NCBI RefSeq assembly: GCF_964204645.1
Contig: NC_134028.1
Location: 12,819,263-12,883,262 of the forward strand
Direction: 5' to 3'
DNA length: 64,000 nt
Origin: Tubulanus polymorphus
Lineage: Eukaryota > Animalia > Nemertea
Positions 587 through 62,857 of this stretch are shown here, piece by piece. A program made the position numbers and the translations under genes. The stretch's first letter is position 1. Each line of letters begins with the position of its first letter. Under the pieces are notes generated by a model, which made no database searches, was not told the DNA's origin, and saw nothing but the letters and a program-made list of their open reading frames with translations.

Positions 587-1372
587 TTACTCTCTACATC
601 TTATAACTAATTCATATATCACAGGAAAGTTATTCAAATCAATTAAATATCCATTATGATTTCTTATTTCTAATTTAAAATTATTGAAATGTGGAATACA
701 AGGTTTAAAATCACATTCAGCTAAATTATAATTTATTTGCGTTCCAAATTGTTTAACATTCTTCAATGGTAAAATGTTTAATATACTAGAATTACAAGTT
801 ATATCTTTAGTTGCTTCAAATGTTTTTGTTGGGTCAATCAAATTGCAATAAATATAAAAATGCGTAAAAGGTATTAAATTTGATATACCGTATATGTTTC
901 CAACAATATGTTTATCTGGAGGAATTCCTAACAGTTTAGCAAAAGGTTTTTTTACCACGTAAGCATGTCTTCTTATCATAAATAAAACAGGTTTATAATA
1001 CTCATCATCAAACTTTACTTTAATTTTATTAGAGCTCTCACTTTTTATGAATTTAATATTAAATTTAGAATCACTACCTAACATAATCCGAGCTTTTCTA
1101 TTAATTTCTTGCTCTAATGTTTCTAAATTATATAATCCTGGTGTAATCATAAGTTGAAAATTTTTATTTCTAAGTTTATCAAGAATAAAAAAGCTATGTT
1201 CATCAGTTTTATCCGATATATTGTAAAATGAGTTACATAAACTTATATTTACTAATTTTAAATCTACACAATTCTTAAATTCTATATCTAATTGAACTAG
1301 TAAATTATGTGATTTATAATTTGTAAGTTTTCTAGAATCAACAAATATTCTGTATTCTTTTAATTCTACCAT
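587..1372 (-). CDS. Putative minor capsid (penton, single jelly-roll) protein
   Basis: Motifs IFVDSR, LKLVNISLCNSFYNIS, ITPGLYNLETL, AKLLG, YIYCNLID, SILNILP and FKLEIRNHNGYLIDLN..YEL match the pattern of Polinton/PLV penton proteins. Intact, 261 aa. Confidence 0.7.
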   Translation of the reverse strand: MVELKEYRIFVDSRKLTNYKSHNLLVQLDIEFKNCVDLKLVNISLCNSFYNISDKTDEHSFFILDKLRNKNFQLMITPGLYNLETLEQEINRKARIMLGSDSKFNIKFIKSESSNKIKVKFDDEYYKPVLFMIRRHAYVVKKPFAKLLGIPPDKHIVGNIYGISNLIPFTHFYIYCNLIDPTKTFEATKDITCNSSILNILPLKNVKQFGTQINYNLAECDFKPCIPHFNNFKLEIRNHNGYLIDLNNFPVIYELVIRCRE

Positions 1373-1440
1373 TATTTATAACATAAAAAAATTACCGCTC
1401 ATCACTAAAAATTAATTTTAATAAAATTTTCCCTTAATAA

Positions 1441-4400
1441 ATGGATGAGAAGATACCATGTGAAATTTGTGGTGAACTTCTAAGAAAAAGTAATATGGCT
1501 TGACATATGAAAAAACATGATGTAAATTATAAACCCCCTAAACTAAACTGTCCAAAATGTAATAAATTATTCTCAAGAAATTATGTTAAAAAACATTCAG
1601 AGAAGTGTAAAATTAATGGCGCAACGGCTAATGTTGATAGTAATGAAAGTAATAGTAATTCTGCTGAAGTTGAACCTGAAGTTATTTGGAAAAGACCTTT
1701 CTTATTCTATGATAAGGATAATATAAAAGATCATTTCTGTGAGCCTTGTCGAATGAAATATAACCCTGAAAATATAGAAGATTGGGAGAATCATCAATTT
1801 CGTAAAGCACATATAGATAAAATTTCTAATAAATTTGAAACTGAATTCAATGAAAGAAAAAATAATTTATTAGAAAAAATAAAATATGAGAAAACGTTAC
1901 CAGATAATAAAGAAACAGTTAGAAAAACAATATAATGAATTAACAAGAAAAACATATTATTAGGCCAGCCGTAGGCTGAGCCTATTACTTTACAAATGGA
2001 GCGAATTTAAATGACATGGTTTCCACACAAAAGGCTCTTTTGCTTGCCAAGTGAGGGCATATTCGAACAAATCACGTATTTAAGCGTAATCCATTCTCGG
2101 AATCGTAGCGAGCAGAATTTTGAAATAGGGTCTCATAAAAATGTTTTCTGCATTTTTCACGAAAGTTAAATCGGGAAAATTTCAATTTTTATCAGCCAAT
2201 CAGGAAGTTGTGTCTTCCCTGTGATTGGTTTATCTGAAAATATCAGCAGCTGTTCACGTGAATTATCGCGATTTCATTACTGGCGCTTTTGTGCATGACT
2301 TCATGTATCAACACGCGACAATACTTCCGCGTTCGCTACGTGTTCGCTGATTGGCCCATTTACTGGGAAATTCCACAGAAGCCTAATGTGGTTTGTTACA
2401 AGCGCTGTGATTGGTTCGACCCGATTCTGGCATGGCTTTAGCTTAGTGGGTTCGAATCCCTTGACGGGTGAAGATGATGGATCCTATCAATATCTATTGA
2501 AACTAATAAGTTTCCCGGTTGGGCAGCCGCGGATATCTACCGGAAGTATTCCGGTTCGATATTTCGAGGTTTCTTTGAATTTTGGAGTGATATTGAAATC
2601 CGGTAAATACCAGCGGTAGATTGTGAAAACCCATTGCATGATATTTGTATTACTTAATCAACGAAAAGCGTCGGGGCCGCGCCAGGAGTTTTCGTGATTC
2701 AAGTAGCGCAATAGCCTACTTCTTCGTGTTCGTCCACCTCAATTTTCACTCCGCCGATCTCTGACACGGCTCTGTCCCCGTCGGCGCTGTGATTGCACAT
2801 TCGTACCACCAAAATTTTTTATTTCTATATCAGGGAGGTCTGGAGAATAAAAAAGTCAAAATTTGGATATCACATAGGCCTGATTTCATCGAATAAGTCG
2901 ACCATGGTCGTTCCGTTTCCGTACTTATTACCACCTAAAACCGTCTGAACAATTTTGTCACAACCAACATTTCGTTTACAGAAATCAGGTGTTCACGTGA
3001 ACCCGCGGTATCGTCTACTGTTTTACTTCCTGGTTTTATTTTAAGATTTAAAATTGTATTTACAAGATCGATTTCTATGAAATCTTTAGTTGATTTGGTG
3101 TTTGGGAGGAATTTTTATTTGCTCTACAGAAAATTCATCCTTGACAATTGCGCAAGGTTCGCGAAAAAAAAGGTTTTACCAAATCGGGTGTATGACCTTG
3201 ATATGCTAATTAGCCATGTGCCCGAATTGCAAATTCAATCAAATTTTATTCTGCCAAAAAATGTTAAATACAATTCGCTTTCCGAGAGTTAATGGTATGC
3301 TGCATGGAACAAAGTTGTTTTGAGATGGGTCTTGAAGCTATTTAGGTCGAGAGATAACCATCTAGATAGTTCGTGAGAGTTCCAAAGTTTTGAAGACGCT
3401 TCAAGGTAATGTCTTGATATTTGGTTTATACGTGTATCTATCCTAGACACATCTTCAGGCCAAAAACTGGCCCTGTCAGATTCAAGATGGCGCCAAAATC
3501 AGCACTTTTTACACATTTTTGAAGTTTTCGAGGGAAATTTTGAAGACACTTTTATCAATAACCTTGATCATTCGTATATATTTATATCCCCCGAGGGCCC
3601 ATCGGCATGAGAAAAATTGGGTCGATCGGACTCAAGATGGCCGTACTGTAACCTTTTTTGTTCCCAAAAATGTCAATTTTGGCCTGAATTCTGAGTACTG
3701 TAGCTTTCTAATGGTGTGCCATGTTTCATTGCAATTTGTAATGGGTATTCTTTGGAAAGGGATCTTTTATATCCGAGAGGGTATTTTTGACCAGGCAATT
3801 ATGACGCACTTGCTGGCCATCTTGGGGTCATCAGTACTCATTCGTAGGTGGAAAAAAAGTTTTTCCACATCATAATTGATACTTAAGCATATTTTGCTAC
3901 TATAATCAATTGGAAAGTTGTAGCTCATGACATGTTCTATGATCGAGATGAGTTTCAAGCTCATTGGTTTTTGTTTATGGCCACCAGGGGGCGTTGAACA
4001 ATACAATAACTTAGTATTTCTATATTACATTCATACCTATGCATATTTTGCTACCACAATCAATCGGAAAGTTGTAGCTCATGACATGGTCTATGATCTT
4101 GGTGAGTTTCAAGCTCATTGGTTTTTGTATATGGCCACCAGGGGCGTTGAACAATACAATAACTTAGTATTTCTATATTACATTCGTTCCTGCTGTCTGT
4201 GTTAACACACGATTTTACTATGTAAATGATATTGAGCAGGGAGTGTATATTGATAAATATAACCCACAGATTACATCATTTATAAAAAGCAAATCTGACA
4301 GGCTGGCCATTGTGCCCCTTGGGGCTCTTGTTGTAAATATCATAAATTGATTATTACAACAAGTAATTCAAATCTACATAATAGAACAATAAAACATAAA

Positions 4401-5135
4401 GAAAACGTAAGAAAATACCAGGAGCTTAATGAAGATCTATTACCAATAAATTATAAACAAAAATGCCCACAATGTAATTACGCGACCTTAAGACAAGAAG
4501 GTACTGTGTTATTTTGTGTTGATTGTGGATGGCAAAAGAATTTATGGGGTGAAGAAAAAACTAGAAATTTTCTCATAGATCCAAAATTAAATTATCTAGA
4601 TGAAATTTTTAAAATATTTTCTATAAAAGATCATACACCAGAATATATGCAATGGCTTGAAAAAATGAAAATAATAGAAAATAAAAATGGTGAAATAACT
4701 AAAAAAGATATTATAAAAACAATTATTCCGTCAACATTTAACACAAAACAAAAGAAAATGTATTTATATTTATTATTTAACGATTATTATGAAAAACCTA
4801 AATTAACAGAAGAAGATATGGAAAATATAAAAAAAATATTCAAACAAATATTAATGTATCATTTGGAAAATAGAATAACAGATTCAATTAATTATGAATT
4901 CTTTTTAAATAAGATTGTAAATTATTTAAACATAGATATTATAATTCCATTTGACGAATTAACAAACGAAAAGAAACAAAGGGAGCGAGATGAAATGTGG
5001 CGCAAGATAGAACTTTATTTAAATAAGAAAAATGAAATGGAAGAAGAACCTAAACAAATTATACAAGAACAATTAAATGAAAATGAAGAAGCCAATAGTG
5101 ATTTCGATTATGATGATATTGATTTTATGTTTTAA
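1441..5135 (+). pseudogene. C2H2 zinc finger + VLTF3-like (poxvirus A2 family late transcription factor) fusion gene, split by a HINE insertion
   Basis: ATG 1441: MDEKIPCEICGELLRKSNMA*HMKKH (TGA at 1501), then CPKC..H..C and FCEPC..H..AH fingers, with a frameshift near 1880. Removing 1958-4331 joins ..TRKTY|CKYHKLIITTSNSNLHNRTIKH in frame with ORF 4347-5135. That ORF has CPQC..CVDCG and a VLTF3-like C-terminus, INYEFFLNKI..QRERDEMWRKI. Confidence 0.72.
1958..4331 (+). mobile_element. Non-autonomous Helentron-associated (HINE/DINE-1-like) element with nested repeats
   Basis: 5' subTIR GGCCAGCC plus adjacent inverted copy (taggccagccgtaggctgagcc); 3' subTIR GGCTGGCC followed by hairpin GCCCC-TT-GGGGC and TCTTGT. 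Inserted at a TT site with no TSD (empty site acatat|tgtaaa). Confidence 0.75.
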
Positions 5136-8100
5136 TGACCATAAGGTAATGTTTTTATACCATCATCTGAAATATGTCTTTTATCATCAAATGGATTTAA
5201 ACTAGTTTTTTCAACTTCATTAATGTACATCTCATGATCTTCTGATCTTAAACAATTCATTTTGTGTTTCATTACAATTGAGTTATATAAACACTTTATA
5301 TAATCTTGAAATTCTATATGTTTATCAACCACATGTTTTGTTATTCCTTTTAACTTTTTAGCTTCATGATCTTTTGTTCTGTAACTATACATTTTACTTC
5401 TTATCCCAACAAATTCAATCATTTCATCACCCCCTAATTCATCTTTAAACTTACCAGGAATCTTTTTATTATCATTGCTAAATAGTTCATGATCTTTGGG
5501 ATAATTGCTAAAATCAAAATGATGTTTTAATGTTTTTAAGTCTTTTGTTATATCATTTGTCTTGATTTTTAGTATGTAGGCGTCGGTATTTTTTTGGATT
5601 AATGGGAACCCAGAATTGAATGTTCCATCATCTGTTGATAAATCATAAACATAGTCAGTTGGGTTATATATTTCAAATAAATCTTCTTCTGTTAACTCAT
5701 TTTCTACATGTCTTAAATTAAAGCAATTTGGTTTAGATTTAATCAATCCAATATTCATATTAAATCCTAATGAACTGCATAATATATTCAATCCTGATAT
5801 AGCAACTTTTCCTTTTTGAGCTAAAGATATTGTTTTGCGGTTTTTGAAACTTTTTGAACTATCTGCAGCATAGAATCCAATGAATAACCATTTTCTTAAA
5901 TCATTTTTTGCATTTAATACATAATCTGGAACTATCTTTTCTTTTGTTGAAGTATTACTTTTAACTATTGCATGAATATAGAATTCATCATTATATTTTA
6001 TAGCAAAATCTTTAGGATTATTTACAAGTATTCTATAAACTGGTGTTGATTTCATAACATCCATGATTTTAAATGTTTTATTTGGATAAACTTCTTCACA
6101 GAATTTCTTTATTCTTTCTAATAATTTTAAGTCTTGATTGCATAAATACCAGCAATATTGAGTGCGATTAACATAATTATACACACCTGCTGAACCATCA
6201 CCCATGAAAAATCCTTTGATAAAATATTCTTTTTCTTCTAATGTTTCGGGTTCTATATTATAAATATTATCAATAATTTCATCAAATGACATATGATTCA
6301 TATTCTTTAGAAAAATCTTTTTATGTAATAATTCATCTCCAAATTTTTATATCAGTTGGTTTTATTTCATCGCCATTTCGTTTAATTAAACTATGATCTT
6401 CTGTAACATCTACAAATCCTAATTCAGTTCTAACTCTATAGATTTTCTTATTTGTTTTATGCCTCATAATATTCTTTAATTTTTTCCATCCATTTCTTGT
6501 CCAAACATCCATTAAACCATTTATTTGTATTAATTCTTTTTCTCCATATGAAATATAACATTCATTTTGTTTTGGAATTATTTCTGAAATTCTTCTTATC
6601 AATATTTTATCATTACATTTTAATAATATTGGGGTGTCAGCTGTTACAGAATCAATATATAATATTTCAATATGCTTTTCCCCAAAAAGTGGTTGTAAAA
6701 CATTATAATAAAAATCATACATTAATAATTTTGATACTTCTAAAACAGTTGAGCCAATAAATATAGGTTTATTAAATTTCATTGACGTTCTTTTTAATTC
6801 AACTGCTGTTAAATAATCTTCAAATCTTTTATTTCCTAAATGTCTAGGACTTGATTGTAAATGTCTTAATCTTTGAGAATTATTTACTAATTCAATATTA
6901 TTTCTATTTCTAATATTTTCGCATGTTTTACCATAAAAACTATTATTCATTAATTTGAAGAAATCTTTTTCAAAATCTGTTTTTGATATGGTTCTCTGTT
7001 GAGTATTGAAATCTATATATTTTTCTATCCACTTCGATTGATTAAATTCAATATATCTATGTACTTTCTTTTATTTCATTCCTTGTTTTAGATAAAATTT
7101 TAACATTCTATGAACGATATAATTGTATTTATTATTTTGAGTAAGTATTAATTTTTCTGTAAAAACATGATCTTTCGGTTTTATTTTCTTCTGGTATTCA
7201 CTTAAATAACTATCATCTACAGTTAAATGTTCTGGGGAATAAGGTAAGTTTCTTGTTTTAAACTTTATATTTTCAGGATATTCTAAATCAACTACAAAGA
7301 AATAACCAATTGGTGCTTCATCTTCTAAACTCATAATTGCGCTTTCCCAATTAGTTTTATCATCATTTTCAATTTCTGTTAATATAAAATTTTTATATGG
7401 TTGAGGTTGCATCATTGCCCAACCATATAAATTATTGGCGTCAATATATAATAATTTATATTCATCATTTGCTTTAAAATATCTATCTCCCATAACACCA
7501 CTAATTCCACCTCTAATTGATTTTTCAAATGATAAAACCATATCTGGTTCTTTTAATAAATCTAATTCTACATTTGTATATTTTAAACCACATTGCCAGG
7601 TTAAACCAGGACTAGAGTAGCAATAACAAGGATCAACATTAAAATGATTCAAATTAACCTCTCTCAATTTTTCAAATATGTCAGCCAATATCATAACATC
7701 TGATTTTAAATATAAATCAACTAATTCGCCATGATTTTTCATCTTAAAATGGTTACAAATATTTAATGTTCTATTAAACACTTCATCTTTCACATACTCC
7801 TCTTTTAATTGATCATAAAATTGATCTTTTAATAATTCTGTTACATTAAAATCATCATGTGTTTTAATTGCGCCTTTATATCTCAATAATTTAAAATCTT
7901 GTTCATTTGGATAATAACATCGAGTTCTAACAAAATCATTATCAACTAAACTTTTTGATAAATTATCTAATGAACTTGCTAGAAATCTATAAGAATCTAA
8001 AAATCTAATGCAACCAAATTGAAATGAAATATAATTTTCAGATGTTTTAGCTAATAGTTTAAAATCATATTTTCTTACATTTACACCATTCATAGCATTA

Positions 8101-9930
8101 TATTCTTCTATTTCTTGATTAATTGTGCCCAATTTCCTTGATAATTGTTTTATAAATAGATGGGTATCATAGCCTGTTAAATTATGAAATAATATTGGTA
8201 CGAAATTAACTTTCTTAGCTTGTAAATTGCAATCTTCATGAGCAGCTCCACGATATTTTGAATTTAAATGATTATGATCTCTAACTTTTTTAGCAAATGA
8301 ATAAAAACGTTTTTCACAATAACAACAATGAGTTGCATAATTAAAATCAATTTCATCTTTTTTCATAACTATTCTATTATTTTTGTTTAATGATTTTGCA
8401 AAATCACTTTCTAATTCAATCATTTTGTCACAAAAATCATTAACTACATCTTCACCTCTAAAAGAAATATATTGACTTTCATATAATTCAGGATAATTTG
8501 ATTTTATATAAATTCCATAAGCAGCAGCTCTTTGATGAACTTTTTTAATTGTATTTATAATTGGTGGGTCTTGTATTGTGTCTTCACTTAATTCATTTCC
8601 TTTATCCATTGATTTTAATAATTGCTTTTTGTTATATATTTCTTTTCTATCTTGATCAGTTAATTCTTTATTCAACGATTCAAAATCCCCATAAATTACA
8701 AATGGAACAATATTCTTAAATTTATGATTAGTAAATTTCAAATTATAATCTTTTTCTGTTGGCATTATTAATTTACAAAAATCTTTATTATCACATAATT
8801 CTTTATGTTTTAATAATGTATTCTCAGTCATAAATTTAGATAAACATTTTCTACATAGATGAATTTTATGATGATGATCACTTTCTGTTCTAAAGAATAA
8901 ATCAATTTGTTTTAACCACATATAATGTTCATTTTCATCTTTTTTGTAATATAACAAATCTATAGCATTTTCATCATCATAATATTCTGTTAAATATAAA
9001 GCTTCCAATGTATAATCTTTAATATTTTCACCTTTTGTCTTTGGTAATTGCATTAATTCGAATACATTTATTTTTAAATTATTAACTTTTTCTATTTTAG
9101 AAATCATTTTTATAGTTACTGGATATTGATCAATTTTATATAATGTTTCATATTTCCGATAATCTGTTATTCTACAAACATTTTCCTGTGTTGGATGTAA
9201 GCAACTAATAATTGACCATAGAAAACATTTATTATCTTCATTTTGAATATTTATTACTGCCTTTGTTGTAAATGGTAATTTAATATAAGATGATGCTTTA
9301 ATATCCTTTTCTGTTGTAAAGTTTGAATCATTTTTAAACATTTTATTACTTTTTGATGTTTTATTTCTTTTTGTATTATAAACATTTAAATCTAAATATA
9401 TAATTTCATTCAATGTTAAGCCAGAACCCTCAAAATATCTTTCTTCAATATGACGTTTAAATTCATTAAATATTTTTTCTAACTTCTCTTTTATTTGTGT
9501 TTTTGAAATTATTTCTTCAGAGTGTGTTTGAATATTATAACTCATTTTTTCTTCTGACTTTATAAAACTTACTTTCCCAGAGATACTAATTTTTGGATAT
9601 TCAACATCTGTTATCAAATCTAGTATTTTTTCTATTATTTCATTAAATTTACTATAATCTTCTATTGTTGTTCCTTTGAAAAATCTAAATATAATAGCTG
9701 CAGGACCAATTTTACTATGTAATGTTTCTAAAATTTCAATTGTATCTTTTATTTCTAGTGAATCAATATAATTTCTAACATTTTCCATGTAAGGTTTATT
9801 TGAAATGGATTTAGTTTTTGAAGTTGGTTTTTTTACTTTTTGAGGTTTATCATCGAAATAATCTTTTCCTAAAACATTATTACTCAAATTTTGATGGTGT
9901 TTTTGTGATTCGAGATGTCTATTATAATTC
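5132..9930 (-). pseudogene. polB: Protein-primed family B DNA polymerase (pPolB, Polinton type) with an intein; one nonsense codon and frameshifts
   Basis: ExoI YGDFES, ExoII FHNLTGYD, ExoIII YLKSDV, motif A YIDANNLYGWAM, motif B KLMNNSFYGK, motif C YID|TD, C-terminal GKFKDE..FVGIRSKMYS..KLKG..FDDKR. In-frame TAA at 7071-7073 (GMK*KKVHRYIEF); +1 frameshift at ~6342. Confidence 0.95.
5588..6650 (-). mobile_element. Intein with LAGLIDADG homing endonuclease inserted in PolB motif C (pol-c site)
   Basis: Starts S (SVTADTP) right after YID. Block B VDVTEDHSL; LAGLIDADG motifs YFIKGFFMGDGS and LFIGFYAADS; block F YVYDLST; ends IQKN followed by +1 Thr (TDA). Length 1063 nt = 354 codons plus one extra base. 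Confidence 0.93.
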
Positions 9931-9934
9931 CTTT

Positions 9935-9981
9935 TTGATGGGTTTCGTCGTCAGACGAACCCATCTATGGCATCGTTGTCA

Positions 9982-10013
<32 letters not shown>

Positions 10014-11152
10014 GATGTTTCTTTATGACACAATTTAAGCTGTTTGTGTGGACCCACAATTCTGTAATTTCACACAGGTATTCTCTACTTGATGTAGATG
10101 GTGCAGCTTGGTTTATATTTGATTCCGATGTTTATAAGTGCTCTAATTTGGTTAAAAGATAATTAACGTTACTCGCTAGTTCAAGCCGCTGTATAGCGCG
10201 TTGCTACGACGACGCTCGATCAACATACTGGTACTCGCTGTGTAATACTGAACACGTATATACCTGTAGATATTGATCGTACTAGCACCGGTTTTAGATA
10301 ACGCGCGCGCGCTGATCGGTCTTAACACTTCTCGGAACTGCTGTGCTAAATGCTGAGAGGCCGAATCTATGCGCAATCATTTATTGGGCTCGTCACATTT
10401 GATAGTGAATGGATAAATAACCGGTGTCAATGACGGTCGCTACTCCCCATCAGTATAACTCATCAGTATAAGAAATAATTCTTTCAAGTTTTTTTTTCAA
10501 TCCCCGAACGTGGTTGTTACTATGTTGACCTCGCCGTTTTATAAGCTTACCGATGATTCTTCTAGTATTTTCAGGGTCACAAGACATGACGAAGTTGCAA
10601 AGTTTTGTACAAATTTCACGAAACAAACAATTATTTAGGCGGCACCTGATCTATTGATTAATTATGATAAATAATGTTTATTTCATTAAAAATTTGTTTT
10701 ATTCAAACACTACTTTCATCGCACATAGCGTGATCGGTAGGCCCTACTATTCTACGGTAGGCCATGGACTCTCATGTGGTAGGCCTATTACAAATGATAC
10801 AATCCGCGTGTCCGTGAATAAGTGACACGTGGTGGGGCGGGTTGTGAGGAGCATCGAAACTAATCCGTCACAAATAATAGATAGAAAACAATACCTTAAG
10901 AGGTTAACTTTTATTAACATCATTACCAAATCAAAACCTGCACATCCTATCATAAATAGAAATTCTAAGAATTTATTTCAAAGAATAATAAATTACGTCT
11001 AAATATTGGGATTCGAACTCGTAGCATCGATTCAGGTGCCTTTCCCAAAGCGGGTATCCCGCGGGGAAAACCCATTACTATTTATATCGAGAATCGCCTT
11101 TTTGACAGCGGGTTCGGTGAATGAAACAGAAACAATTACACAGAAACCCATC
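9935..11152 (+). mobile_element. DINE-1/HINE-like insertion in the 5' part of polB
   Basis: 5' GATGGGTTTC..GAACCCATC inverted pair, a (GTCT)n/GTCC microsatellite at ~9983-10010, and 3' subTIR GAAACCCATC at ~11142. Confidence 0.6.
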
Positions 11153-11409
11153 ATGGAAAGTTTCTTTCTGGTTACTATAAATTCATTACAAACTTCACAT
11201 TTTATTTCATCCACATTCATATTTTCTAATCTTTCTTTTCTTTCATTGGAATTTTCTGGAGTTTCAAAATCTATTACATTTTTTATATGATTTGCAGTTT
11301 TTTCATGTCGTGATTTTTGGGATTTATCGATGTATTTTTTACAATATTGGCAATAATATTGATTTTTATTAACATTATTGTTTTCTGGCTGGTGTTCATT
11401 TTCCCCCAT
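11153..11409 (-). pseudogene. Zinc-finger N-terminal segment, probably the true 5' end of polB
   Basis: TAAATG start; YYCQYCKKYIDKSQKSRHEKTANH and KCEVC fingers. Same strand as polB, separated from it only by the 9935-11152 insertion. Confidence 0.55.
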
Positions 11410-11448: not shown

Positions 11449-11736
11449 CTCGACCGCTCGACCTCTGATCTGAAAGCCCACTTTTCCAATTACTGGTAGG
11501 CCTATATGTCTTTTCATACCAGAGGTCGAGAGGTCGAGCTCATAAAAATAAAAATAAATTCTCACAGGCTTGAATTCATTTTTATTTTTACTCACTCGCC
11601 CCTCAACCTCTGATATGAAACAACATATACCCTATTACTCTAATAATTTCATATATATGAACATTATATAAATGAATATCATATATATGAAAATCAATTA
11701 TATAGATTTCGAATAAAAAAATATGTAAAATAAATG
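11449..11736. promoter_or_regulatory. Inverted-repeat (hairpin) region between divergent viral genes
   Basis: Arms 11503-11538 / 11595-11629, inner stem 11543-11561 / 11572-11590, extra arm copy 11449-11475. Homologous to 62583-62800. Confidence 0.55.
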
Positions 11737-12279
11737 GTAGAATTAAAAGAATATTAAAAGTAACGAGTAATAAACGAGTTGAAGAAAATATTAATTTCCA
11801 TTAAGAAATTACTAATAAATGAAAGAACAGATACTACATTTCAAAGATATTTACATGAATTAGAAAAATATTTTAGGCCGACAATTAAACATTTTATTCC
11901 TATTCAAGATTTGATTAGAACTGCACGTTTTCGTTTTCAAGTGAGTAATATTACTGAATTAAAGTTTAAAAATTATTATCTAATGATTGAGTTATCGAAT
12001 GAAAAAGATAAAATCTTATTCAATACAATAATTCCAAAATTCACAACATTTAATGAAATAGATAAACATTTGATAATTACAGATGAATTACAATCACTTT
12101 TATATAATGAAAAATCAGATAAATCATTATTTATACACCTACGATATTGCCCTTTCAGAGAATGCTATGTAATGTTTTCAGAGTACAAGAAAAAAGGTTT
12201 ATCCCTGACATTCCAAATGAAAAATCATTTAAAGATACAGGAACTCAATGTAACGAGCAATGTAATGATCATTATTTAA
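11734..12279 (+). pseudogene. Degenerate hypothetical viral ORF
   Basis: TAAATG start, MVELKEY*K*, in frame with ORF 11779-12279. Confidence 0.45.
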
Positions 12280-12399: not shown

Positions 12400-15360
12400 C
12401 AACCACAGGGTTGTGAGTTTTGCTATCTGTAGCACGCTGGGGATCAATATTTAAATCAGAGTCAGAGTCTGATGAAGTCTCATGAATTTCCTCGTAGGGC
12501 TGATTCATTTCAGGTACCCGTCGGTTTTACCTCTTTACGGGGCTTATTTTGATCTGTCACCTTTGGAAATGGAATAACACCACAAGGCAATAATAAACTC
12601 CATCTTCCCGTTTCACTGAATATACGACATCTCCAAGAGATTTGGTGACCAAATTAACATCAGAACGCCAATGATCAGCTATTTTATGTTTGCCCTTTAG
12701 GCCAACATTACGCAAGAGAACACGTTCACCGTTAGTCCAAACACTTTCTTTCACTCTCTTGTCATAGCGTGCCTTGTTTCGGTCGTTAGACTTATCAGCG
12801 TGACTCAGCGCCGATTTATATGCTTGATCTAGAGATGTCTTTAGGTCTTTCGCATATTTAGAATAGTCTGTGTGCTCGCCTTTACCGGCAGGATGAATGT
12901 TGAAATACCAATCAACCAACAGTCTTGGTTGTCTACCAAACATGAACTCGAAAGGTGAGTGACCTTTAGCATCATTTCGAGTACAGTTATAAGCGTGACT
13001 TAAGAACTTCAAATGCTTAGACCAACTGTCATTGATCTCCTGATCTTGAGTACCAATCATATCCAGTAGTGTTCTGTTGAAGCGTTCACACTGCCCATTG
13101 GAAGGGCTGTGCCATGGACTCGACAGTGACAACCTAATGCCTGTCATTTTCCTAGGAAATCCGAAAGAGTCTTTCCAGGAAAGAGTCTTTCCATAAAACT
13201 TCAGCCACCTGCTTCGTAGTTTCGTTTTTCGTCGCCATCGCTCTGGAATAACGGGTGAAGTGGTCTGTTATTACGAGTACATGTGTTCTCCCGGTCTTAT
13301 CCGGGTCTACACCGAGGAAATTAATACCAACCAAATCCATGGGTCAGGTGGACTGAATATGTAACAGTGGGGCTGATCTTGGGTCTCGTGTTTTCTGCAA
13401 GATATAGTTTCTGCAGTTGCCAATGTGTTTGCTTATGTCGGACTCCATATAAGGCCAGTAGAAACGATTGCGTGCAAGGTCTAAGCTTCGTTCAGTTGCA
13501 AAGTGACCGATATCGTCGTGTATGCCTTGCATGGCCTTTTCCCTGAATTTCTCTGGTACTACCAATCTATGTACCTTCCTACCTCTAAAGACTGATGTTT
13601 TATACAATACATCACTATCAAAGTAAGTTGTGCCTCAGTTTCTTAGCATATTCTGAATGACCTTCGGACATTTACGCCATTTTCTCCTGGGAAGGGGTAG
13701 GGATTCATATTCTAGAATGTTGATGAAATTCCCAATGACTTGGTCATCTCTCTGGGAGACTTTCAGTTCTTCAACCGATAGCGACTGTATCTCATCTTGG
13801 GCAATAATTTCCAAGTCCTGTACTGAATTCAATGTGGCGCTCAAACATTGGGCTATTGGAACGTTCTGAGCTTCCACGACAGCTTGACAGTAGTCTTGAG
13901 CGGATTGGAGTATGGCGACTTCAAGTGCGGGTCTTACCCGATTGACTAATGATGAGATTCTTTCCTCCTGTTCAGTATCTTGGCTGTCCATATCGGGCCT
14001 TCTTTAAAGTAGATCTGCATCGACATTGTGACGCCCAGCACGATATACTATGTCAAAGTCATAGTTGGTTAAAGCGGCTAGCCATCTGTGGCCATCTGTG
14101 ACCAACTAAACGGAGGTCAATATATAAGTTAATGGATTATTATGCGTCAATATCTGGAATTTCTTCGCTTCAGAGAGATAGTCATGAAACTTGTTCTTGA
14201 CTGCCCAGAACCGGGCAAGGAATTCTCGTTTATGTACAGGGTAATTCTTTTCGCTGCTAGACAGGCTTCGGCTAGCATATGCTACTGGGCGCAATGTCCC
14301 TTCCTCTCTCTGATACAGTGCCCAGTGTTCTCCACGGCTCAAATTTATAGCAGGGCGCAGTAAGAAATATTAAACTTATTCTGCATCAACGATGCAAGCA
14401 CATTGCGGGGGTTTGTGGGTCCTCCCCCAAGAAATTTTTTTAATTTAACGCCTCCTCAGAGTGTCTGAGACAGAAAAGCATACTGGAATTCGTGAAAAGT
14501 CACATGTGGTTTTAATGCTGGGACGCCAAATATCACAATATATCTATGGACGAAAACTGGGCAAGTGGCTCAGTTACTATGATGGTTGTCTATTTTTAGA
14601 GAAACTGACAATGACCTACGCACTGGAGAGAATGAATGCATGAACAAACACTTACATGCAATTTTTTAAGAATTTCCTAGAAGTCACCGCAAATGTTTTG
14701 AAATTCATAGCTCAGCCAACTTTTACTCGTAACTAGGTGACTAAAAATATATCTAATTCAACCCACAACTAGAAATCTCATTAAGTTGGGTGCTATTCTG
14801 ATTCCAACTGGAATGTGTACCACAACTTTTCCCCTAACTATATCATAGACAGATATGAATTAGGTCAATAACACTTAAAGTTCAACTGAGAACTGTAATA
14901 ATCTAACCAGAGCTGGATTGCTGAAAAAAGGATGTGATAAAGATGTAGGTTGCTGTTTTTTGAGTTTGTCTCGTTTCCTCTACAATCTCACCTGACAGTA
15001 TTCCTGCCACAAGATAGGGGTGGACTATCTTGCTTGTCCCGAAGAATACTTCAAGATACAAATTACAATTTGGTTAAGCCGATTAGGCCAATTTGAGCCA
15101 AATCGAGCCCCACGTTGGGCGCCAAAAATGTAACGCACTTCCAGATGGTATTGGCAACGTGCGTGCGTGGGGCTAGAAACTCAAAATAAACTTACTGAGA
15201 ACGAACTCAAATCACAACGAACTCTAAAAATAAAATACAATATATATACGTTTATTAAGATGATAAGTAATAGAGCAATGAAATATTATCTAAAACCAAT
15301 CACTAAACCGAACCAAATTTCACCCAAGTTATACCAATCCCAATCATATTGTGTTACCAA
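12400..15360 (-). mobile_element. Degenerate Ty3/Gypsy LTR retrotransposon (RNase H, integrase, PBS, part of the 5' LTR)
   Basis: PVAYASRSLSSSEKNY..EFLA (RNase H), HDDIGH..FYWP (integrase zinc finger), TDHFTRY and NGQCERFNRTL (integrase core); multiple stops. Confidence 0.88.
15107..15124 (-). promoter_or_regulatory. Primer-binding site, tRNA-Lys(CTT)
   Basis: Minus strand reads ..GTTACA TTTT TGGCGCCCAACGTGGGGC: the LTR end followed by the 18-nt Lys1,2 PBS. Confidence 0.85.
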
Positions 15361-24200: not shown

Positions 24201-27200
24201 GTTCGCCTGCTTTGTCTTGAGTAAATTCCTTCGAGAAAATGATTAGAAAATGATTTTGGTAGCTGAAAAACCCCCCTCTCGATCCGGGCCTGTTAATTCT
24301 TTGTTCTTACCACCAGGGGGAGTGAAATATTGAATGATATATAATTTGTCTATTCATATTGGTACCTAAGCAAATTTTGTTACCATAATCAATTGCAAAT
24401 TTTTAGCTCATAACATGTTCTTTAGTGTTGAGTTTCAATGTCATTGGTTTTTGCATATGGCCTCCAAGAGGCATTGAGTATTGTTAATCAGCATAATCAT
24501 CTGACACAAGATAGTGTGCTTTATGTATTTTTTGCTCCTTAAAGGTTATTTTAGGTCTGAATTCTTAGCCCTGTAACATCATGACGTTAGATTTCAGAGA
24601 AATGGGTACCAATATTTACTTAAGGGATGAATTATTTTTGGCCAGAGAATTCAAGTAAACTAACTAAGAATGCAGTATTGCCTTTTTTCCGATGCTTTCA
24701 TATCGCGGAATCAGGGATTTGCAAAATTTTCCAAATCATGGAATTTCGTCGCTTTCACTATAGATATTGCAAATTTTGCAAATCCCTGATTCTGTGATAT
24801 GAAAGCATGGTTTTGCATACGGTCACCAGGGGACTTTGAATAGTAGTATAATAACTTAGTATTTCCATATATTATATTGGTACCTAGGCATATTTTGTTG
24901 TCAGAATCGATTACAAGTCGTATCCGCTGACATGTTCTATGATTGTGGTGAGTTTCAAGGTCATTAGGTTTTGCATATGGTCACCTGGGGGTATTGAATA
25001 GTAGAATAACTTAGTATTTCCATATTGAATTGGTAACGAGGCATATTTTGTTATCACAATCGATTACAAAATCGTAGCTGCTGACATTATCTATGATTGT
25101 GGTGAGTTTCAAGGTCATTGGTTGTTGTATATGGTCACCAGGGGGCGTTGAATATTGAAATTGTTAGATTGTTGAGCATTTGGAACCACTTCCCCAGTGG
25201 GCAGGATAAATAGATAACTATTCTGCTAACTATTACGGCTAATTCGTGCTCCTTTTTTCAATAAGTCACATCTTAGGTCGCTATATGTATACTTAAGTTT
25301 CTTCTGGTTAAGAAATCGCGGAAAGTACAATTTTGATGGCATTTGCCTTTTAAGACAATTTACATTTTCACCACTTCTCTGATGTTATTTGAAACAGTGT
25401 TTGTAAGTTAATTTGATGTGCTTTTTTCAGGTTTAACTCCTGCTATGCAAAAGGTTATGTTCAGAGGTAAGATAATGAGGATGAAGTTATAGATATCATG
25501 AGCTACAATTGATTGGTAGTAACAATCGATCTAAGCGTCTTCAACATTTCCCATTTGAAACCTCTGCAAAAGTGCTGATTTTGCCAAAATGGACACAATT
25601 CGGTCATCTTGTTTTCCAATCTGGCTGAAGATAAGGTTAACGGTACAAATATACATAACTAACTAGGCCCTATTGAGACCATACATAAAAGCGTATCAAA
25701 AACTTCCTAAGAAGACAAATGAAATTAGAAATAGGATTGTCAAACATGTTATGTTCAGAGGTAAGCCTTACATCAAGATCAAATTGACAGTCAAGTGAAT
25801 TTACTCCTAACTAAAGCTAAGCCAAGGTCGACTTACGACCCGACCGGTCTGTGATTTTTGGAACGGTCTGCGATTTTTTTCATCAGGAACCTTTTCAATG
25901 CGAGTGGGCTTATGACTGCGACGGATTGGTTGCAGACCCGTCGTAAGCCGAATTGCAAGGATAGAAATATGGGTGAATTTAAATGACATATCTGGATCGG
26001 CAGTACGTTATTTCATTTTCATGTCGAGTAGAGAGTTTGCAGGATCGAATGGATGACTATTCTTGTCGGTATCGGCAATTTCTTCGCTACATTCAAAAAA
26101 TTCTACCAGTTGTTTTCAGATAGCTATCACTTATCATTGTTCAATGCGTTTTGTAGTGGTTAGTAAACTGAGCTGATATCACTCTCCCCGATTGGTTATT
26201 TTCGGGGCAATCCTCTTTTTGACTGAGGCAGAGACCAATCTCAAGGTCATTGGGTAAAATAATGAATAAAAGGATTAGAAATTGACGAATGGCAAATCCT
26301 TTACCTAGTTCGGTCTCTCCATACGCCTATTTGTCATAAGATCATTCAACGAATACATTAAAAAAAATTCTAGCCCACGAATTCAGAGCGCTAATGCTCA
26401 CCACTTTGATAAGTGTTTATTACTTAGTAGATCGAATCTGAGAGAAGATACATTTTTCATTGAAAATAAAGTGGATAAATAATAATCACTACTATTACGA
26501 TAGGGTTTTCTGTGAAACAACAGAAAACCCTACCAAGTTCTTTTTCTACGACCCAATTCGATGATACAGAAGATACCAAGGATACCTGTCTTAGAACCAG
26601 TTACCTGCAGACCGGCCAAGTGTTACGATTCTTCCGTATTTGTTAGGAATGTGACCATGAAAATACGATGTTACGATCAGCACAAAATTACTATGGAATT
26701 TTTCAAAATTTTTACGAAATTACGACTTTTGCAAATAAACTACGTTTTTTGATAGAGCAAAATGTTATGTTTCCTTACGAAATGTAAGAAAATTTGGTCA
26801 CAAACGATCGGTGGTTAGAAATATATCCGCCATCAGATAGCGCTAGTGAATGGCCAGCAGATCAACAAAGAATTAAATTTAGTTGGTAGTGGTTGCTCCA
26901 TTGAATATTCTCGGAGCCACCCACATTGAGTCTTTTTTAGCCCACTTTAATCCCAGTGGGCTATTGCGTTCACTTTTCGTCCGTCGTTCGTCCGTCTGTA
27001 GACGGAGTCCAGTTATTTTGGGAAGTTTTGAAGACGCTTCACAATATAATGTCTTGATATTTGGTTTATACATGTATCTACCCTAGACACATCTTCAGCC
27101 CAAAAACTGGCCCTATCAGAATCAAGATGGCCGACTGGCAGCCATTGTTGTTCAGCACTTTTTACACAGTTTTGAAGTTTTTGAGGGAAATTTTGAAGAC

Positions 27201-30200
27201 GCTTTGATGAATTACCTTGATCTTTCATATATATTTGAATCTTGGGCCCATCAGCGTAACAAAAATTGGGTCAATCAGACTCAAGATGGCCGTCCTATGA
27301 CCTTTTTAGTGCCCAAAAATGTCAATTTTCGCTGGAATTCTGGGTCCTGTGGCTTCCTACTAGTTTGCCATTTCTCATTTCTATTTGTGATGGGTATTCT
27401 TTGGAAAGGGATGTTTTATGCCTGAGACAGGTATTTTTGATCAGCCAATTATGATGCAATTGGTGGCCATCTTGGTGTCATCAGTACTCATACGTAGGTT
27501 GGAAAAAGTTTTTCCACATTAAATTGATACCTAAGCATAATGTGTCACTATAATCAATTGGAAAGTTGTAACCCATAACTTGTTCTCTGATTTTCTTGAG
27601 TTTCGAGGTCATTGGTTTTTGTATATGGCCACCAGGGGGCGTTGAATAATACAATAGCTTGGTATTTCTATATTAGGCCTATATTTGTACCTATGCATAT
27701 TTTGTAACCACAATCTTTTGCAAAGTTGTAGCTCATGACATCGTCTATGATTGTGGTGAGTTTTATGGTTATAAGATGGTAGTGAGTCGATGACGTCATT
27801 TTCGTGTCGCCACTTATAACTTGTTGGTGGGAGTTCAGAGGAAGATTTGACAAACGAATAGATACTTTAATCTTATTTATGCAGTGTGAAATTTAGCTTT
27901 TTTAAAATATTTCCCTAAATTATTAGAAAATGCCGATAGTAAGATCGTGGGAAAGTTTTTATCGTTGAATGGGCGAATCACGGCGGCAGAGTGCACCTGT
28001 GATAAGGCAGAAATAGTTCCATGTGAAGGCAAAGCTTTTAAATGATTAGACAGTCGGAGGTGGTTTATTAACTTTTTTCAATTATGGTGCTGCTAATTTC
28101 CCAATCAAATTGCTAGATTTCGATCGTTTCTATGGTGGCTGATTCGGGCCATGTAATAAAAAAATCACAAACGTTACAAATTTTTTTTTGCGGACGCTTT
28201 AAAGTCGGTTTATTGCGCGATTAAACGAAAATTACCATGTTAAATTGAGAAATTACCGCGATAAAACGAGAAAAAGTCGTTTTATCGCGCGATTAAATGA
28301 ACTTTTTCGTTTTATTGCCACGTTAAAACAAAAAATAGCGCTATAAAACGAAAATTACCGCGTTAAAACGAGAAAAAGTCGTTTTATTGCGCAATAAAAC
28401 GAGAAAAAGTCGTTTTATCACGCGATAAAACGACTTTCGTTTTATTGCCATGTTAAAAACAAAAAATAGCGCGATAAAATGAAAATTACCGCGATAAAAC
28501 GAGAAAAAGTCGTTTTATCGCGCGATTAAACGAACTTTTTCGTTTTATTGCCACGTTAAAACGAAAAATAGCGCGATAAAACGAGAAAAAGTCGTTTTAT
28601 CGCGCGATAAAACGAACTTTTTCGTTTTATTGCCATGTTAAAACGAAAAATAGCGCGATAAAACGAATTTTTCGTTTTATTGCCACGTTAAAACAAAAAA
28701 TAGCGCGATAAAACGAAAATTACCGAGATAAATCAAGAGAAAGTCGTTTTATTGCGAAATAAGACGAACTTTTTCGTTTTATTGCCACGTTAAAACGAAA
28801 TAATTCTTTTTAGTCCTTTTTTTCTTCAACAAAAAGTTGAGTACGTCCTCATTGTGGGAACTGACGCGGAACGCTACACTCGACGCTTGCTGGGAATGTA
28901 TGCACCATAGTAAGTAAAGCATACCATATAAGCCTACGGCTGTGCCACATTTAGGGTGTTACGTCGGGGGGGGGGGGGTGTCGGCCGGGACTAGTAACTG
29001 ACCCACTTTTGAAATTTAAGTCCCGCTTATCTTACGAGGTCACTCTTCTACTTTCAGTCGGGTAAAGTGCAATGTGGCTCTTTCGCTGCAAATAGCCCAT
29101 ACATATATTATTGATCTGGTTTAGTGTCACAGAACTGCATTAGCCTTGATGTAAGCTTGCAAATATAACCACAACCAATTTCCTCAACACTACAGTGTTG
29201 CCACTTCTCCGGATTTCTCCGGAATTCCGGATTTTAAAAAAATCCAATTTCATTTCCGGATTTTCGGGAGAAGTCAAATAACCACAAAAGAAAACATCGC
29301 GAAAAAAATAAAATCAATTCGGGATTCGACCCTAAACATCAAAACGTAGTGGCAACAACCCGGCAGTACACGATTAAACCAAGATGACGCGACGATCGAA
29401 ATCGATTGACGCTTCGTTTGTTTTTTGGCTCTCTGGTTTATGTATGAGGTGTATTTGACGGAACCAATCGCTTTTTGAAAAAAAGATCTATAGGCGGTAA
29501 TGAAAGTGAGGCCTATAACGCGTATTGCGCCAGAACGCATCTCCTGGCGTTGTAATTTCAAAAAAATTTTGGGGGAGGGCCCCCAGACCCCCGACTTATT
29601 TTCCGGATCTTTAGCTTCACGTAAGTGGCAACTCTGACACTATTGCTGTCTTTCTAGAATATGTTTGATGAAATCCTGGAAGAATTAGGTATGGGTTCCC
29701 TCATACCTATTTTTCGTGAAAACAAGGTACGGTATAGGCCATCTAAGTTGCACCCGCTGGGGCTGTACATATGGATTCCCTTTTGGTTCTGAAGAAAGGG
29801 AAGTTGTTGGTTTGTGGCGTGTGAGTGGAGTGCTTCAATACGCAGGTGTCCTCTAAATCCGAGGGTCTTCAAAATACGGGTGATGCCAAGTTACTTGCTA
29901 CACCAGGTGGTTCAGTTCCACAGTTCCGGGGTTAAGATTTGACTCAGAGTTAACTCATTGAAAATGAACAACTGTGGAACTGGGCCCAGGATCCAGTTCC
30001 ACAGTTGTGAGTCACAAGAGTAAAATTTGAGTTAAAATCAGTGCATTTTCATTGTTTTTATTCAGAATCACATCTAAACTCATCTGTGAAACTGGACCCA
30101 CGTAAATGAGGTCCGTTTATTTAAGACAATATAATGCCTTTTTCTTAATTTGGCACATCCGTGGGGGACAATTCCCTGCATGACCTAATTTTTTTTCACT

Positions 30201-33200
30201 TGGTATAAAGCCAAAGATATTTTCGCGCCGCGAAGTCATGCAACAATGAATGTCAGTAGATTGCCAAAAAGTCTCGTATTTGTTGAATATTGTAAGCAAG
30301 CTTATCTGTATATCCTGTTGTTACGGTTTATGGTCGAGTTAGTTCACGGTTTATTACTCACATTATTTGTACCTTATATAAATACAGTATTGGGAATAAA
30401 TTCTATATCATTTGTATCTGCGATATACGTGTGTGTGTTATTGGTATTTGGTGCGCCCGTTTAAGGGCCTGATCGTCGCAGAGTTTTCTACATTTTGGTC
30501 CCTCGAGTCCTGGAGCCTGGAAGTACGTGATGGCAGAAGACGGACGGCAAAGCGAAGGCTACAAAGGCCTTGTGCGGAAGAGGACAGCCCAGCGGGGACA
30601 AGTCACGATGATTTTGAATGACGCAGATTCGGTGGTCAACTCAAGAACAACTCAGGCGCCGGACATCGCGAAACTCGAACGATTTGTGCAGCGACTCGAG
30701 ATCAAGATCACGCTTCTGACTGACATAAATGAAGAAATGTTGGTGATGATAAAAGATGACAGCGTCTACATGCAAGTTTCGAATGAAGCAGAAGAGGCCA
30801 TTTCGAATGCCACTGATCGTAAGTTGTTTTATGAACAATATTTGAAAAATGCGACGTTAACCGCTACTAAAGTTAGAACTGAAGGATTTCAGAAATCCAC
30901 ACTTCCGACGCTTAAATTGCCCACGTTTACTGGGAATCTGCTTGAATGGTCTACCTTTTGGGGGTTGTTTGAATCAACAGTGCATAATAATTCAGCGTTT
31001 TCTAACATTGAGAAATATAGTTATTTGCTCGGTCAAATTAGTGGTGACGCTAGAAGTTGTATTGACCGTCTTCCTATGACTTCAGAAAACTATGATAGTG
31101 CCGTTGAATTATTACAAAATCGTTTTGGTCAGACGCACCGTTTGTCAAAAGCATATTTGCAGGCTTTAACTGAATTGAATCCGCCAACAGCTGAAGTTTC
31201 GTCATTAAGGCATTTTTATGATAGTTCTGAAACGTATATTCGACATCTCGGTTCAATTGGTATTTATACTGAATCCTACGGCGTGATGCTTGTTCCAGCT
31301 ATGTTGGACAAGTTACCTTACGATGTTAAAATGTCTATGGCAATTATGTGTAATAAACCTGATAGTGATTGGTGTTTATCTGAGCTCAGTGAAGCTTTAC
31401 TTGTTCAAATTCAATTAAAGGAATCATGCATGTCACCAGAAACGAACGCGCCTATTCAATCGTTGCATTTAAATATCAATTCAAAACAATCTGTTAATTC
31501 GAAACCCGTCAGGAATGTTACTTGAAACTGTGTGTACTGTTGTAAATCTCATTTGCCATCAGATTGTTTTTATGTTACCGACGTTAGGAAGAGAAAGGAC
31601 ATCGTTCAGAAGGCAGGCATATGTTTTAATTGCCTTGGAAAGCATAGAGTGAGTAATTGTCGGTCAGAAGTTTTATGTAAGTTTTGCAAAAAACGACACC
31701 ACAGTAGTTTGTGTTTTGCCGTATCCCGCATGGGGCCTGGTACCGGAAATCAGGCTGACATGAGCTTTAGTGAACCGGGTAGAGTTAAGCAAAGAAGATT
31801 AATCGTATCTAATTCAGGAACTCAAACTAATTCAGTGGTTGAAAGTGGAACCTGTCAATCAAACCGAAATATATCCTTGATAGAATTTGAAACCACAGCT
31901 GTAACCACTAATGCAAAGTTATTAGATACTGTTATGTTAAAAACTGCGGTGACGGAAGTTTCCGGTACTGATAAAACAATCATTGCTAATTTGCTTTTTG
32001 ACGATGGGGCGCAACGGACGTTTATTACGTCTCAATTAGCCAAACATTTAGGGCTTCCAATCACTAGGAAAGAGACAGTAAGCATGTCTGTTTTTGGATC
32101 TGATAAACGTAGTGTACATCATTTGCCTATATCTCGAATCACAGAAGTACCATGCTTTCATTTCACAGGCGTGGATTATCTGGGGCCTTTGTTCGTAAGA
32201 TCGAAAAGTGGAGATTATGTGAAAACACACGTTTGTTTGTTTACATGCGCGGTGAGCCGTGCAGTTCATTTGGAGCTTGTGTCAGATCTTACTACGGAAC
32301 AATTTATATTAGCATTTAAGAGATTTGTGTCACGTACCTAGACAGCTCATTTCTGATAATGCATCTACGTTCACTTGTGCTAATGATATTCTGATCCGCA
32401 TTTTTTCTGCAGTAGAATTTTCGACATATTCATCCCAACAAGGGATTATTTGGAAATTCATTCCAAAACGTGCGCCGTGGCACGGCGGATTTTATGAACG
32501 ATTAGTATCTTTGGTGAAATCATCAATTTATAAGGTGCTAGGTAGAACCTCCGTGACATTTGATGAGTTGCATACTTTAGTTACGCAGATTGAAAGTCGA
32601 TTAAAAGACCGTCCAATTACGTATATATCTGATGATGTACGCAACCCGGAACCTCTGACTCCGTCCATGCTCCTTTGTGGACACCGTCTTACTTCTGTTC
32701 TGGTTGCAGATTTTGATAATACTGATCCAGACTTTCGTGTTGATATTGAGAAATTTGTGAAAAGATATAATTATTTGGATACATTGATTACACAATTTTG
32801 GAATAGATGGAAAGGTGAATTTGTGTTAAGTTTACGTGAGTTTCACCGTACTACGGGCCATAATTGTTGTGATATTAAGGTCGGTTCAGTAGTTCAAATT
32901 CACGATAGCGGTCCTCGTTTAAGGTGGCGTCTAGGTGTAGTTACTAAATTACATCTGGGAAATGATGGCCACGTGAGATCCGCATCTCTTAAAACATCAA
33001 CCGGATTTACGAATAGAGCTATAAGTTGTTTGTATCGGTTAGAGGTTTGCGCTAAGGAACCCGTAATAAGTTCTTCAGTGAGTGATGCTCCAGAATCAAC
33101 ACGTCCGAAAAGAGCAGCGGCAGTTGCAGCAGAAGCAAAAATTCGTCAACTTTCGCGCCGGGCGTAGGAGTCGGATGATGATTAATTGCGCTCTTGAAAT

Positions 33201-61490: not shown

Positions 61491-62857
61491 CATGAATCAT
61501 GAACAATTTATGCTCAATAGTTTTATCGGATACATTTTAAAAAGAGTAATATAAACTTACATTTACTAATTTTAAATGTACACAATTTTTAAAATTATCT
61601 AATTGTACAAGTAAATTATGTCATCTATAATTTGTAAGTCTTCTAGAATCAACATATAATCTTTATTCTTTTAATTTATCTTGCATTTATTTTACATATT
61701 TTTTTCTATTCGAAATCTATATCATGGTGCCCTTTTTCATTCTTACCTTAATAATGTGAATTAAAAATCGCCAGAACATAATTCTTGAATATCTTCACTA
61801 GATAATCTATGATATCGATCTGGTAGATACGCTCTGAATTTATATTTATTTCCCTTCAGCCCCTCGTATTCAAAATGGATTTTAAATTTATTACCATGTC
61901 TATTTGTAGTTGATTCAATGTTTGTAATTAAATATTTTTTATAAATTGTTAACTCAGCTTTTTGAATTTATAATCTACAGATTTTAAAGAAACTTTAATT
62001 CTATCTAGGAATGATTTATTGTTCTCACTGTGTACTTGTTTACTCTCCATTTAAATATATAATTTTTTATTAAAATTGCTTTCATTAATATTAATATAAT
62101 ATTCATAAATATGATATTCATATATATGGAATAACCTAGTAAGTGTAGTTAGGTCGTTTCAGGTCAGAGGTTGAAATAAGAGTGAATAAAGTGTGAATAA
62201 GAGTGAATAAAGAAAACAAATATAAAAAGTAATTTTACTTTCTAACTATAATATATATTCATAGTCGTGTGTATTCCTAGGTAATAATTATCAGAATAAA
62301 TTAATATAATTAGAATAGATTTAATTATTTAAATCTATTCTATTGTGTATTGAAATTAAATCAGTTGAAAGCGGAGCAATTGATTTAATTGATCTCATTT
62401 ATCATTCGAAAGGGAATATTAAAGAGACACGTATTTTGACCTATTTACAACTATTGTGACATGATACGTGTGTGTGTGCGTCTGTGCCCGCGTGTGCGTG
62501 TATCTAGGAGGGAATTGTGAGGAGAAAAGCCATTATCTAAATCGGGACTAATATCTGAGTGACGAGTAATTTGGGCAGACTCAGTAATAGGGAATATGGG
62601 GGTTCAGGCCAAAGGTCGAAGGGTCGAGCTCATAAGAAATGAAAAATAAATTCTCCCACGCTCGAATTTATTTTTTTTTACTCACTCACCCCTTTAACCT
62701 GAACCCCCATATTCCCTATTACTCCTAATAATTTCATATAAATGAATATTTTATAAATGAATAACTTCTAAAATCAATTTTAATAAAAAATTTGATATTA
62801 AAATGGAAGCAAATAAGAAGTACTACTGTCCAACATGTAAAAAAGAAATACATAAAT
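61491..62857. mobile_element. Second relic of the same Polinton-like family
   Basis: Minus 61686-61491 reads MQDKLKE*RLYVDSRRLTNYR*HNLLVQLDNFKNCVHLKLVNVSL (paralogue of ORF 587-1372). Also a degenerate ORF from 62050 (-), the hairpin module 62583-62723, and a zinc-finger ORF start MEANKKYYCPTCKK at 62803 (+). Confidence 0.8.

Follow-up and report, generated by a model that had tools for sequence, protein, structure and literature searches.

Inteins at the pol-c site (position III) of DNA polymerases are described from Mimivirus, from the PolBs of other Nucleocytoviricota, and from archaeal PolI (Ogata 2005; PMC549080). The intein reported here resembles them in its placement in motif C (YGD/TDS in Mimivirus), in its length of about 350 aa, and in possessing Ser1, a TxxH motif, a terminal Asn, a +1 Thr, and a LAGLIDADG domain. 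It differs in that its host is the protein-primed polymerase of an integrating element and in that it belongs to a long-branched clade of its own, to which the pol-c inteins of RNA-primed PolBs form the sister group on trees, with a best identity of 39-50%. PMC10710043 describes DNA polymerases of viral appearance that bear inteins and lie on nuclear scaffolds of Klebsormidium, Tetrabaena, and a labyrinthulomycete, as well as inteins of Anaeramoeba. There too a viral polymerase intein was brought into a eukaryotic nucleus by endogenisation, but those hosts are not animals and the genes are of giant-virus type; the words Polinton, animal, and metazoa are absent from the portions of its text and supplements that were searched.

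The polymerases of Polintons (Mavericks) are protein-primed PolBs (pPolBs) that fall into Beta (group 1) and Alpha (group 2) classes in PMC8502044, and the extein examined here is a Beta pPolB. Nuclease inserts of the HNH or VSR type have been found in pPolBs, and LAGLIDADG is not mentioned in the accessible text of that work (10.1101/2023.08.22.554363). Unlike the present insert, those nucleases are described as permanent, without a splicing domain, and away from motif C (10.1101/2023.08.22.554363 and PMC11161782), and PMC11161782 only suggests that they arose from intein invasions. The Chilo iridescent virus intein, as cited in PMC549080, is likewise an intein in a virus of animals, but it is of the glutamine type and resides in a non-integrating iridovirus that is not inherited by the host. 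Metazoan genomes are stated to be without inteins in the review PMC8529194, and the supplement of a 2018 survey (PMC5784728) counts 0 for Metazoa and does not mention Polintons; an earlier note on this DNA held inteins to be essentially unreported from animal nuclear genes. No description of an intein in a Polinton polymerase was present in the literature searched, which lacks most subscription journals and Repbase reports, nor in the accessible parts of PMC12220804, PMC3671162, and PMC13768754.

Here we describe a locus in a window of 64,000 nt from the nemertean Tubulanus polymorphus (NC_134028.1:12,819,263-12,883,262, forward strand), within which all coordinates are given. We interpret it as a decayed LAGLIDADG intein in motif C of a Polinton pPolB in an animal genome, one of a family that likely stems from a single capture from giant-virus-type polymerases and likely spreads by homing between Polintons, and we assign this reading a probability of roughly 0.7. 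The term giant-virus-type denotes the RNA-primed PolB type as a whole and not any particular virus family. The kind of intein is known, but its host class and location are apparently undescribed; the finding is the family, with its intact, empty, and target-altered alleles, of which the copy in the window is a fossil.

On the minus strand of the window, motif C of the polymerase is split (junctions marked here by a slash) as YID/SVTADTP at 6650 and KN/TDA at 5588, with boundaries set by comparison with the empty alleles P0316 and P0435. Block B (TEDH) lies at approximately 6393-6404, the LAGLIDADG motifs at approximately 6194-6214 and 5858-5878, and a block-F-like YVYDLST close to the C-terminus. 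Ser1, TEDH, the terminal Asn, and the +1 Thr are all present. The N-terminal piece is 67% identical to the P0001 intein and 59% identical to that of P0062. It passed the cut-off of TIGR01445 (intein_Nterm) and fell below that of Pfam Intein_splicing (14.4 versus 35.8), while the C-terminal piece passed PF14528 (LAGLIDADG_3). The intein spans 1,063 nt and is therefore out of frame, the break lying within 6333-6346. Thus the principal claims of the earlier note were borne out: a LAGLIDADG intein recognizable by profiles in motif C of the polymerase, the splicing residues it had listed, and a frame break near 6342.

Features of the intein, its host element, and related clusters. Positions are those of the 64,000-nt window.
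Feature	Position	Strand	Remarks
Intein gene, pol-c site in motif C	5588..6650	minus	Hint splicing domain and LAGLIDADG endonuclease; frame broken
Intein N-piece: Ser1 (block A), TEDH (block B)	6342..6650	minus	TIGR01445 35.2 bits (cut-off 24.5)
Intein C-piece: two LAGLIDADG motifs, block F, terminal Lys-Asn	5588..6346	minus	PF14528 26.1 bits (cut-off 22.5)
C-extein, beginning with the +1 Thr of motif C	5132..5587	minus	84% to P0316, 150 aa
N-extein flank, motif B (KLMNNSFYGK) through YID	6651..7070	minus	89% to empty P0316, 140 aa
Premature in-frame stop in polymerase	7071..7073	minus	Comparison with intact relatives
Polymerase main body, Beta-type (group 1) protein-primed PolB	7074..9950	minus	54% to P0001 over 426 aa, 76% to P0316
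Insert of about 1.2 kb splitting polymerase 5' end	9936..11153		Perfect 11-bp inverted repeat at bounds, GTCT microsatellite
Polymerase 5' end, zinc finger	11167..11409	minus	64% to P0435 residues 5-76; zf-U1 29.2 bits
Neighbouring ORF, candidate VLTF3-like (lead only)	4299..5135	plus	Atlas features 0.87, mark 0.9; 10/10 best matches same family
Host repeat inside element	3385..4191		747 bp at 83% to 27023-27763; more copies out to 41 kb
262-aa ORF	587..1375	minus	Putative Polinton minor capsid likeness
Complete pPolB intein clusters, n=11	P0001-P0005, P0053, P0054, P0057-P0059, P0062		No break
Partial pPolB intein clusters, n=4	P0063, P0302, P0333, P0427		

The penultimate residue of the window intein is Lys, the usual His being missing. 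A penultimate His is common in class 1 inteins and is not obligatory. Among the RNA-primed PolB inteins compared, 141 of 238 end in Lys-Asn and 81 have the penultimate His. The missing His and the Pfam Intein_splicing score below cut-off would be expected if the insert were a non-splicing Hint or endonuclease domain resembling the HNH and VSR inserts of Polinton polymerases, and nuclease inserts are indeed known in pPolBs (10.1101/2023.08.22.554363). The insert nevertheless splits the catalytic DTD motif and retains Ser1, TxxH, Asn, and the +1 Thr, the window copy passes TIGR01445, its relative P0002 passes the Pfam Intein_splicing cut-off, and a Lys-Asn terminus is common among the RNA-primed PolB inteins. 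On the split motif, the splice residues, and the two profile matches, we rejected a non-splicing domain as extremely improbable.

The polymerase gene starts at 11409. None of its pieces matched a PolB family in Pfam, and its identity as a pPolB follows from its similarity to P0001, which matches PF03175; relatives carry PF03175 and PF02945. Weak PF03175 scores combined with PF02945 in these relatives would fit the divergent Beta class, and by the class names in PMC8502044 the window polymerase is a Beta-class member of the protein-primed PolBs, the host type proposed in the earlier note. The closest polymerases, P0316 and P0435 (flanks 84-89% identical), are empty at the exact intein site. An endogenous giant virus of the Nucleocytoviricota was rejected as the source of the gene, there being no PF00136 match and the flanks being unlike P0006 and P0066. 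At two other loci, L002 and L003, intein-free polymerase homologs adjoin what we take to be integrase- and ATPase-like genes. In the window, which opens inside the element, no integrase, packaging ATPase, protease, or major capsid gene of the element was identified, and no terminal inverted repeat was found in 1-30000, the left end of the element lying outside the window. The ORF at 587-1375 may resemble a Polinton minor capsid protein; this assignment drew no support from Pfam, PHROG, or PDB, and the single-sequence fold had a pLDDT of 32. The 64-kb window contained no second polymerase and no second intein.

A repeat situated between ORFs of the element (3385-4191) belongs to a family with seven further sites in the window, where eight occurrences of its core motif compare with 0 expected. 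Host repeats thus lie inside the element, which is therefore integrated, and the earlier note's proposal that the intein is carried in the host genome holds. The low G+C of the element (0.24 versus 0.38) might be expected if a giant-virus or protist contig had contaminated the assembly or been wrongly joined to it, but the host repeats within the element, the second insert that splits the gene, the decay of that gene, and exteins of the pPolB rather than the PF00136 type led us to reject this explanation as very improbable. G+C and GC3 do not set the intein apart from the extein (0.25 versus 0.22-0.26), so composition shows no recent foreign origin of the intein.

Several other features were observed around the element. 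A decayed LTR retrotransposon with RNase H and integrase (12557-14369, minus strand) adjoins it on the right and appears to be the source of the integrase at 12557-13267. Upstream of the polymerase, a palindromic A+T-rich stretch at 11503-11753 is 79% identical to 62603-62782 and matches two nearby pieces; the region 61664-62907, near a short zinc-finger-like frame, is possibly the remnant of a second element. Five exon-like pieces on the plus strand extend over about 35 kb (21355-55900), and we take them to be a UBFD1-like gene, although the UBFD1 label used in the earlier note obtained no confirming family match. Enclosed by these pieces are a BEL/Pao-type retrotransposon with DUF1759 and DUF5641 (30473-33167) and an intronless ORF with a HECT domain (34585-35943). 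BEL/Pao retrotransposons are essentially animal-specific, and together with the exon-like pieces this one makes an animal host likely.

The window copy has accumulated many different lesions. In addition to the frameshift, the intein has a 2-codon deletion near 5683, and its second LAGLIDADG motif departs from the pattern found in all 18 relatives that were read unambiguously (3 more were unresolved). The polymerase has short in-frame deletions near 7865 and 7109, and, at 7071-7073, where the earlier note had asked for the raw reads to be checked, a premature in-frame stop and not a frameshift. The first ~80 codons are separated from the main body by the insert of about 1.2 kb, which is likely a non-autonomous transposon of the host and which has no second copy in the 64-kb window. 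Any single break may be a sequencing error, but given so many different lesions it is unlikely that all of them are. Judged from the reading frames, the window copy is dead and incapable of working.

The earlier note was right that the window intein is real, but it missed that this is one decayed member of an old family: at least 15 further 90% protein clusters carry the same intein in a pPolB, among the matches listed, and one such intein has jumped between the Alpha and Beta classes. The set was assembled from searches that gave 15 matches, the best 120 of 1,273, and the best 150 of 3,104, together with cluster listings; from the 309 proteins collected, 282 full-length inteins were cut out. 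Their hosts were 253 RNA-primed PolBs, 19 Beta pPolBs, and 10 unclassified proteins, the last including one that we read as an Alpha pPolB (P0062, PF03175 at 110.9 bits) and four that we read as topoisomerase II-like. In 11 relative clusters the intein shares the reading frame of its host protein, a frame that has been lost in the window copy. P0302 is 77% identical to the window. The P0062 intein is 41-59% identical to that of the window whereas the exteins do not match significantly (E 0.3-5), a contrast indicative of lateral transfer. The pPolB intein relatives lie on contigs of 1.7 kb to 1 Mb. Searches for intein-bearing loci returned none on viral contigs with P0001, P0002, P0435, P0062, and A3 as queries, none on metagenome contigs with the window C-piece and P0001, and none on genome contigs with P0057 and A3; query A2 gave three loci, all matched through exteins only.

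Two side observations concern the proteins collected. The same broad intein lineage occurs in the topoisomerase II-like proteins P0055, P0277, and P0305, at a D/TDG-type motif that mimics the pol-c junction, and P0055 carries two inteins. The Polinton polymerases P0057 and P0326 carry bacterial source names in their records, one a Candidatus Thiodiazotropha bin and the other a Sulfurimonas entry, and are likely mis-binned host or viral contigs.

For the intein trees, rows were gathered by a profile of pPolB inteins and comprised no archaeal rows; of the window intein, only the unbroken C-piece entered the trees. With FastTree (285 rows), all 23 pPolB rows formed one clade with a support of 100, sister to 71 RNA-primed PolB inteins. 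With IQ-TREE, on 45 rows picked from the 285, all 13 pPolB rows again formed one clade (100/100), now nested among the RNA-primed PolB pol-c inteins, in a tree whose outgroup did not fall on one side of a branch. P0062 was placed beside the window group (92/86), and its placement as sister to the Beta inteins, rather than nested, was not rejected by the AU test (p 0.147). Two of the RNA-primed intein hosts are labelled only 'viral metagenome'. In a fold-family check based on a model of the P0001 intein with a pLDDT of 61 and a weak C-terminus, Foldseek searches of BFVD gave polymerases of phycodnavirus, Pandoravirus, Marseillevirus, and Megavirus origin among the leading matches, and those of PDB returned intein homing endonucleases.

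These trees agree with the viral-type likeness that the earlier note had seen in the pol-c insertion. Its further proposal, that an intein of NCLDV type had moved into a pPolB, is likely for the family, whose clade is nested in the inteins of RNA-primed PolBs, but probably not for the window copy itself. That copy is one member of an old family, and its direct donor was therefore most likely another Polinton and not a giant virus.

Filled and empty alleles of the intein site, which the earlier note had proposed to look for, were present side by side in the protein sets. Motif C was empty in 75, filled in 3, and unreadable in 42 of 120 proteins, a set limited to 1,679 aa in which filled alleles are consequently under-counted. 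In 26 of the 75 empty Beta polymerases motif C reads YMDCDS or YTDCDS, with Cys at the usual Thr; these alleles are possible homing-escape or lineage variants. The filled P0036 and the empty P0039 are identical at 740 of 746 extein residues. The P0002 cluster of 136 members includes filled as well as empty genes that are unbroken, on contigs measuring between 95 kb and 1 Mb, and among the 15 members listed, 7 are filled, 6 are empty, and 2 end short of the site. Measured against the filled P0002, each of the six listed empty alleles has 8-9 changed residues among the 20 that surround the site, but diverges by 1-5% elsewhere (Fisher p <=5e-6, the alleles being related and not independent). This local divergence, as read from the protein sequences, would fit either escape alleles or the arrival of new flanks together with the intein. 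The sole empty allele of the P0005 cluster, by contrast, has an unchanged protein flank.

The distribution was also read on a 45-row polymerase tree (36 of 82 empty alleles and 9 filled rows, with seven short or unalignable filled rows omitted). Intein presence required 8 changes, 7 of them forced by starred branches, versus a shuffle mean of 8.4, so that carriers, in contrast to the single clade of their inteins, are scattered over the polymerases and no more clustered than in shuffles. Change counts cannot separate gain from loss, and the tree counts thus do not polarise the two. This leaves room for one old insertion in an ancestor of Beta Polintons, inherited vertically and lost precisely many times, with little or no homing and a single old jump to Alpha. 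Judged by eye, the intein tree and the polymerase tree share their deep branching, and repeated loss from an old insertion would accordingly explain part of the pattern. As a full account we consider this unlikely. Both endonuclease motifs are retained across relatives only 45-50% identical, which by established reasoning on the intein life cycle is expected only with continued homing; 75 of the 78 readable relatives are empty, which would necessitate very many precise losses; and divergence in the P0002 cluster is concentrated at the target.

Under the homing reading, which we prefer, intact copies would undergo class 1 splicing (acyl shift at Ser1, attack by the +1 Thr, and cyclisation of Asn) that restores motif C, and from this chemistry an intact element would depend on splicing to replicate. 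The freed endonuclease would then cut the empty motif C of other Polintons in the same nucleus, repair templated by the filled copy would move the intein into the empty site, and target-site variants would escape cutting. Conservation of the motif C sequence is what likely allowed the intein to pass from RNA-primed polymerases to protein-primed ones, and also to cross between Alpha and Beta polymerases. The first capture would have required a cell containing both a Polinton and a genome of giant-virus type, the co-infection proposed in the earlier note. PMC549080 holds direct homing between distant PolBs to be implausible, so that such capture was probably rare.

Where homing takes place bears on a bolder proposal, to which we give a little less than even odds: that animal germlines host a natural homing-endonuclease drive acting at the level of a protein, in which an intein derived from giant viruses converts integrated empty Polintons, selects escape alleles in catalytic motif C, and has crossed the two major polymerase classes. 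Homing might instead be confined to free Polinton viruses that meet in co-infections, perhaps of protists or of somatic tissue, with no intein active in the germline and animal genomes merely collecting the fossils. The dead copy in the window fits this, and its closest relatives, on contigs of 1.7-17 kb, may be free viruses. The contigs of the P0002 cluster, however, far exceed a Polinton in length, and this suggests young integrated copies. Restriction to free viruses fits most of the main explanation, differing just in where homing occurs, and we regard it as possible but distinctly short of an even chance.

The intein family described here is an exception to the absence of inteins from metazoans, though the gene that it occupies belongs to a virus-like element and not to the host itself. 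In this family, exchange of DNA between Polintons and polymerases of giant-virus type has left a physical trace, which bears on the open question of whether Polintons replicate alongside helper giant viruses. With filled, empty, and target-altered alleles available at 95-99% identity, homing and escape are directly testable, and the intact relatives offer candidates for new inteins and meganucleases out of elements associated with animals. If the proposed germline drive is true, inteins would be live residents of metazoan nuclear genomes.
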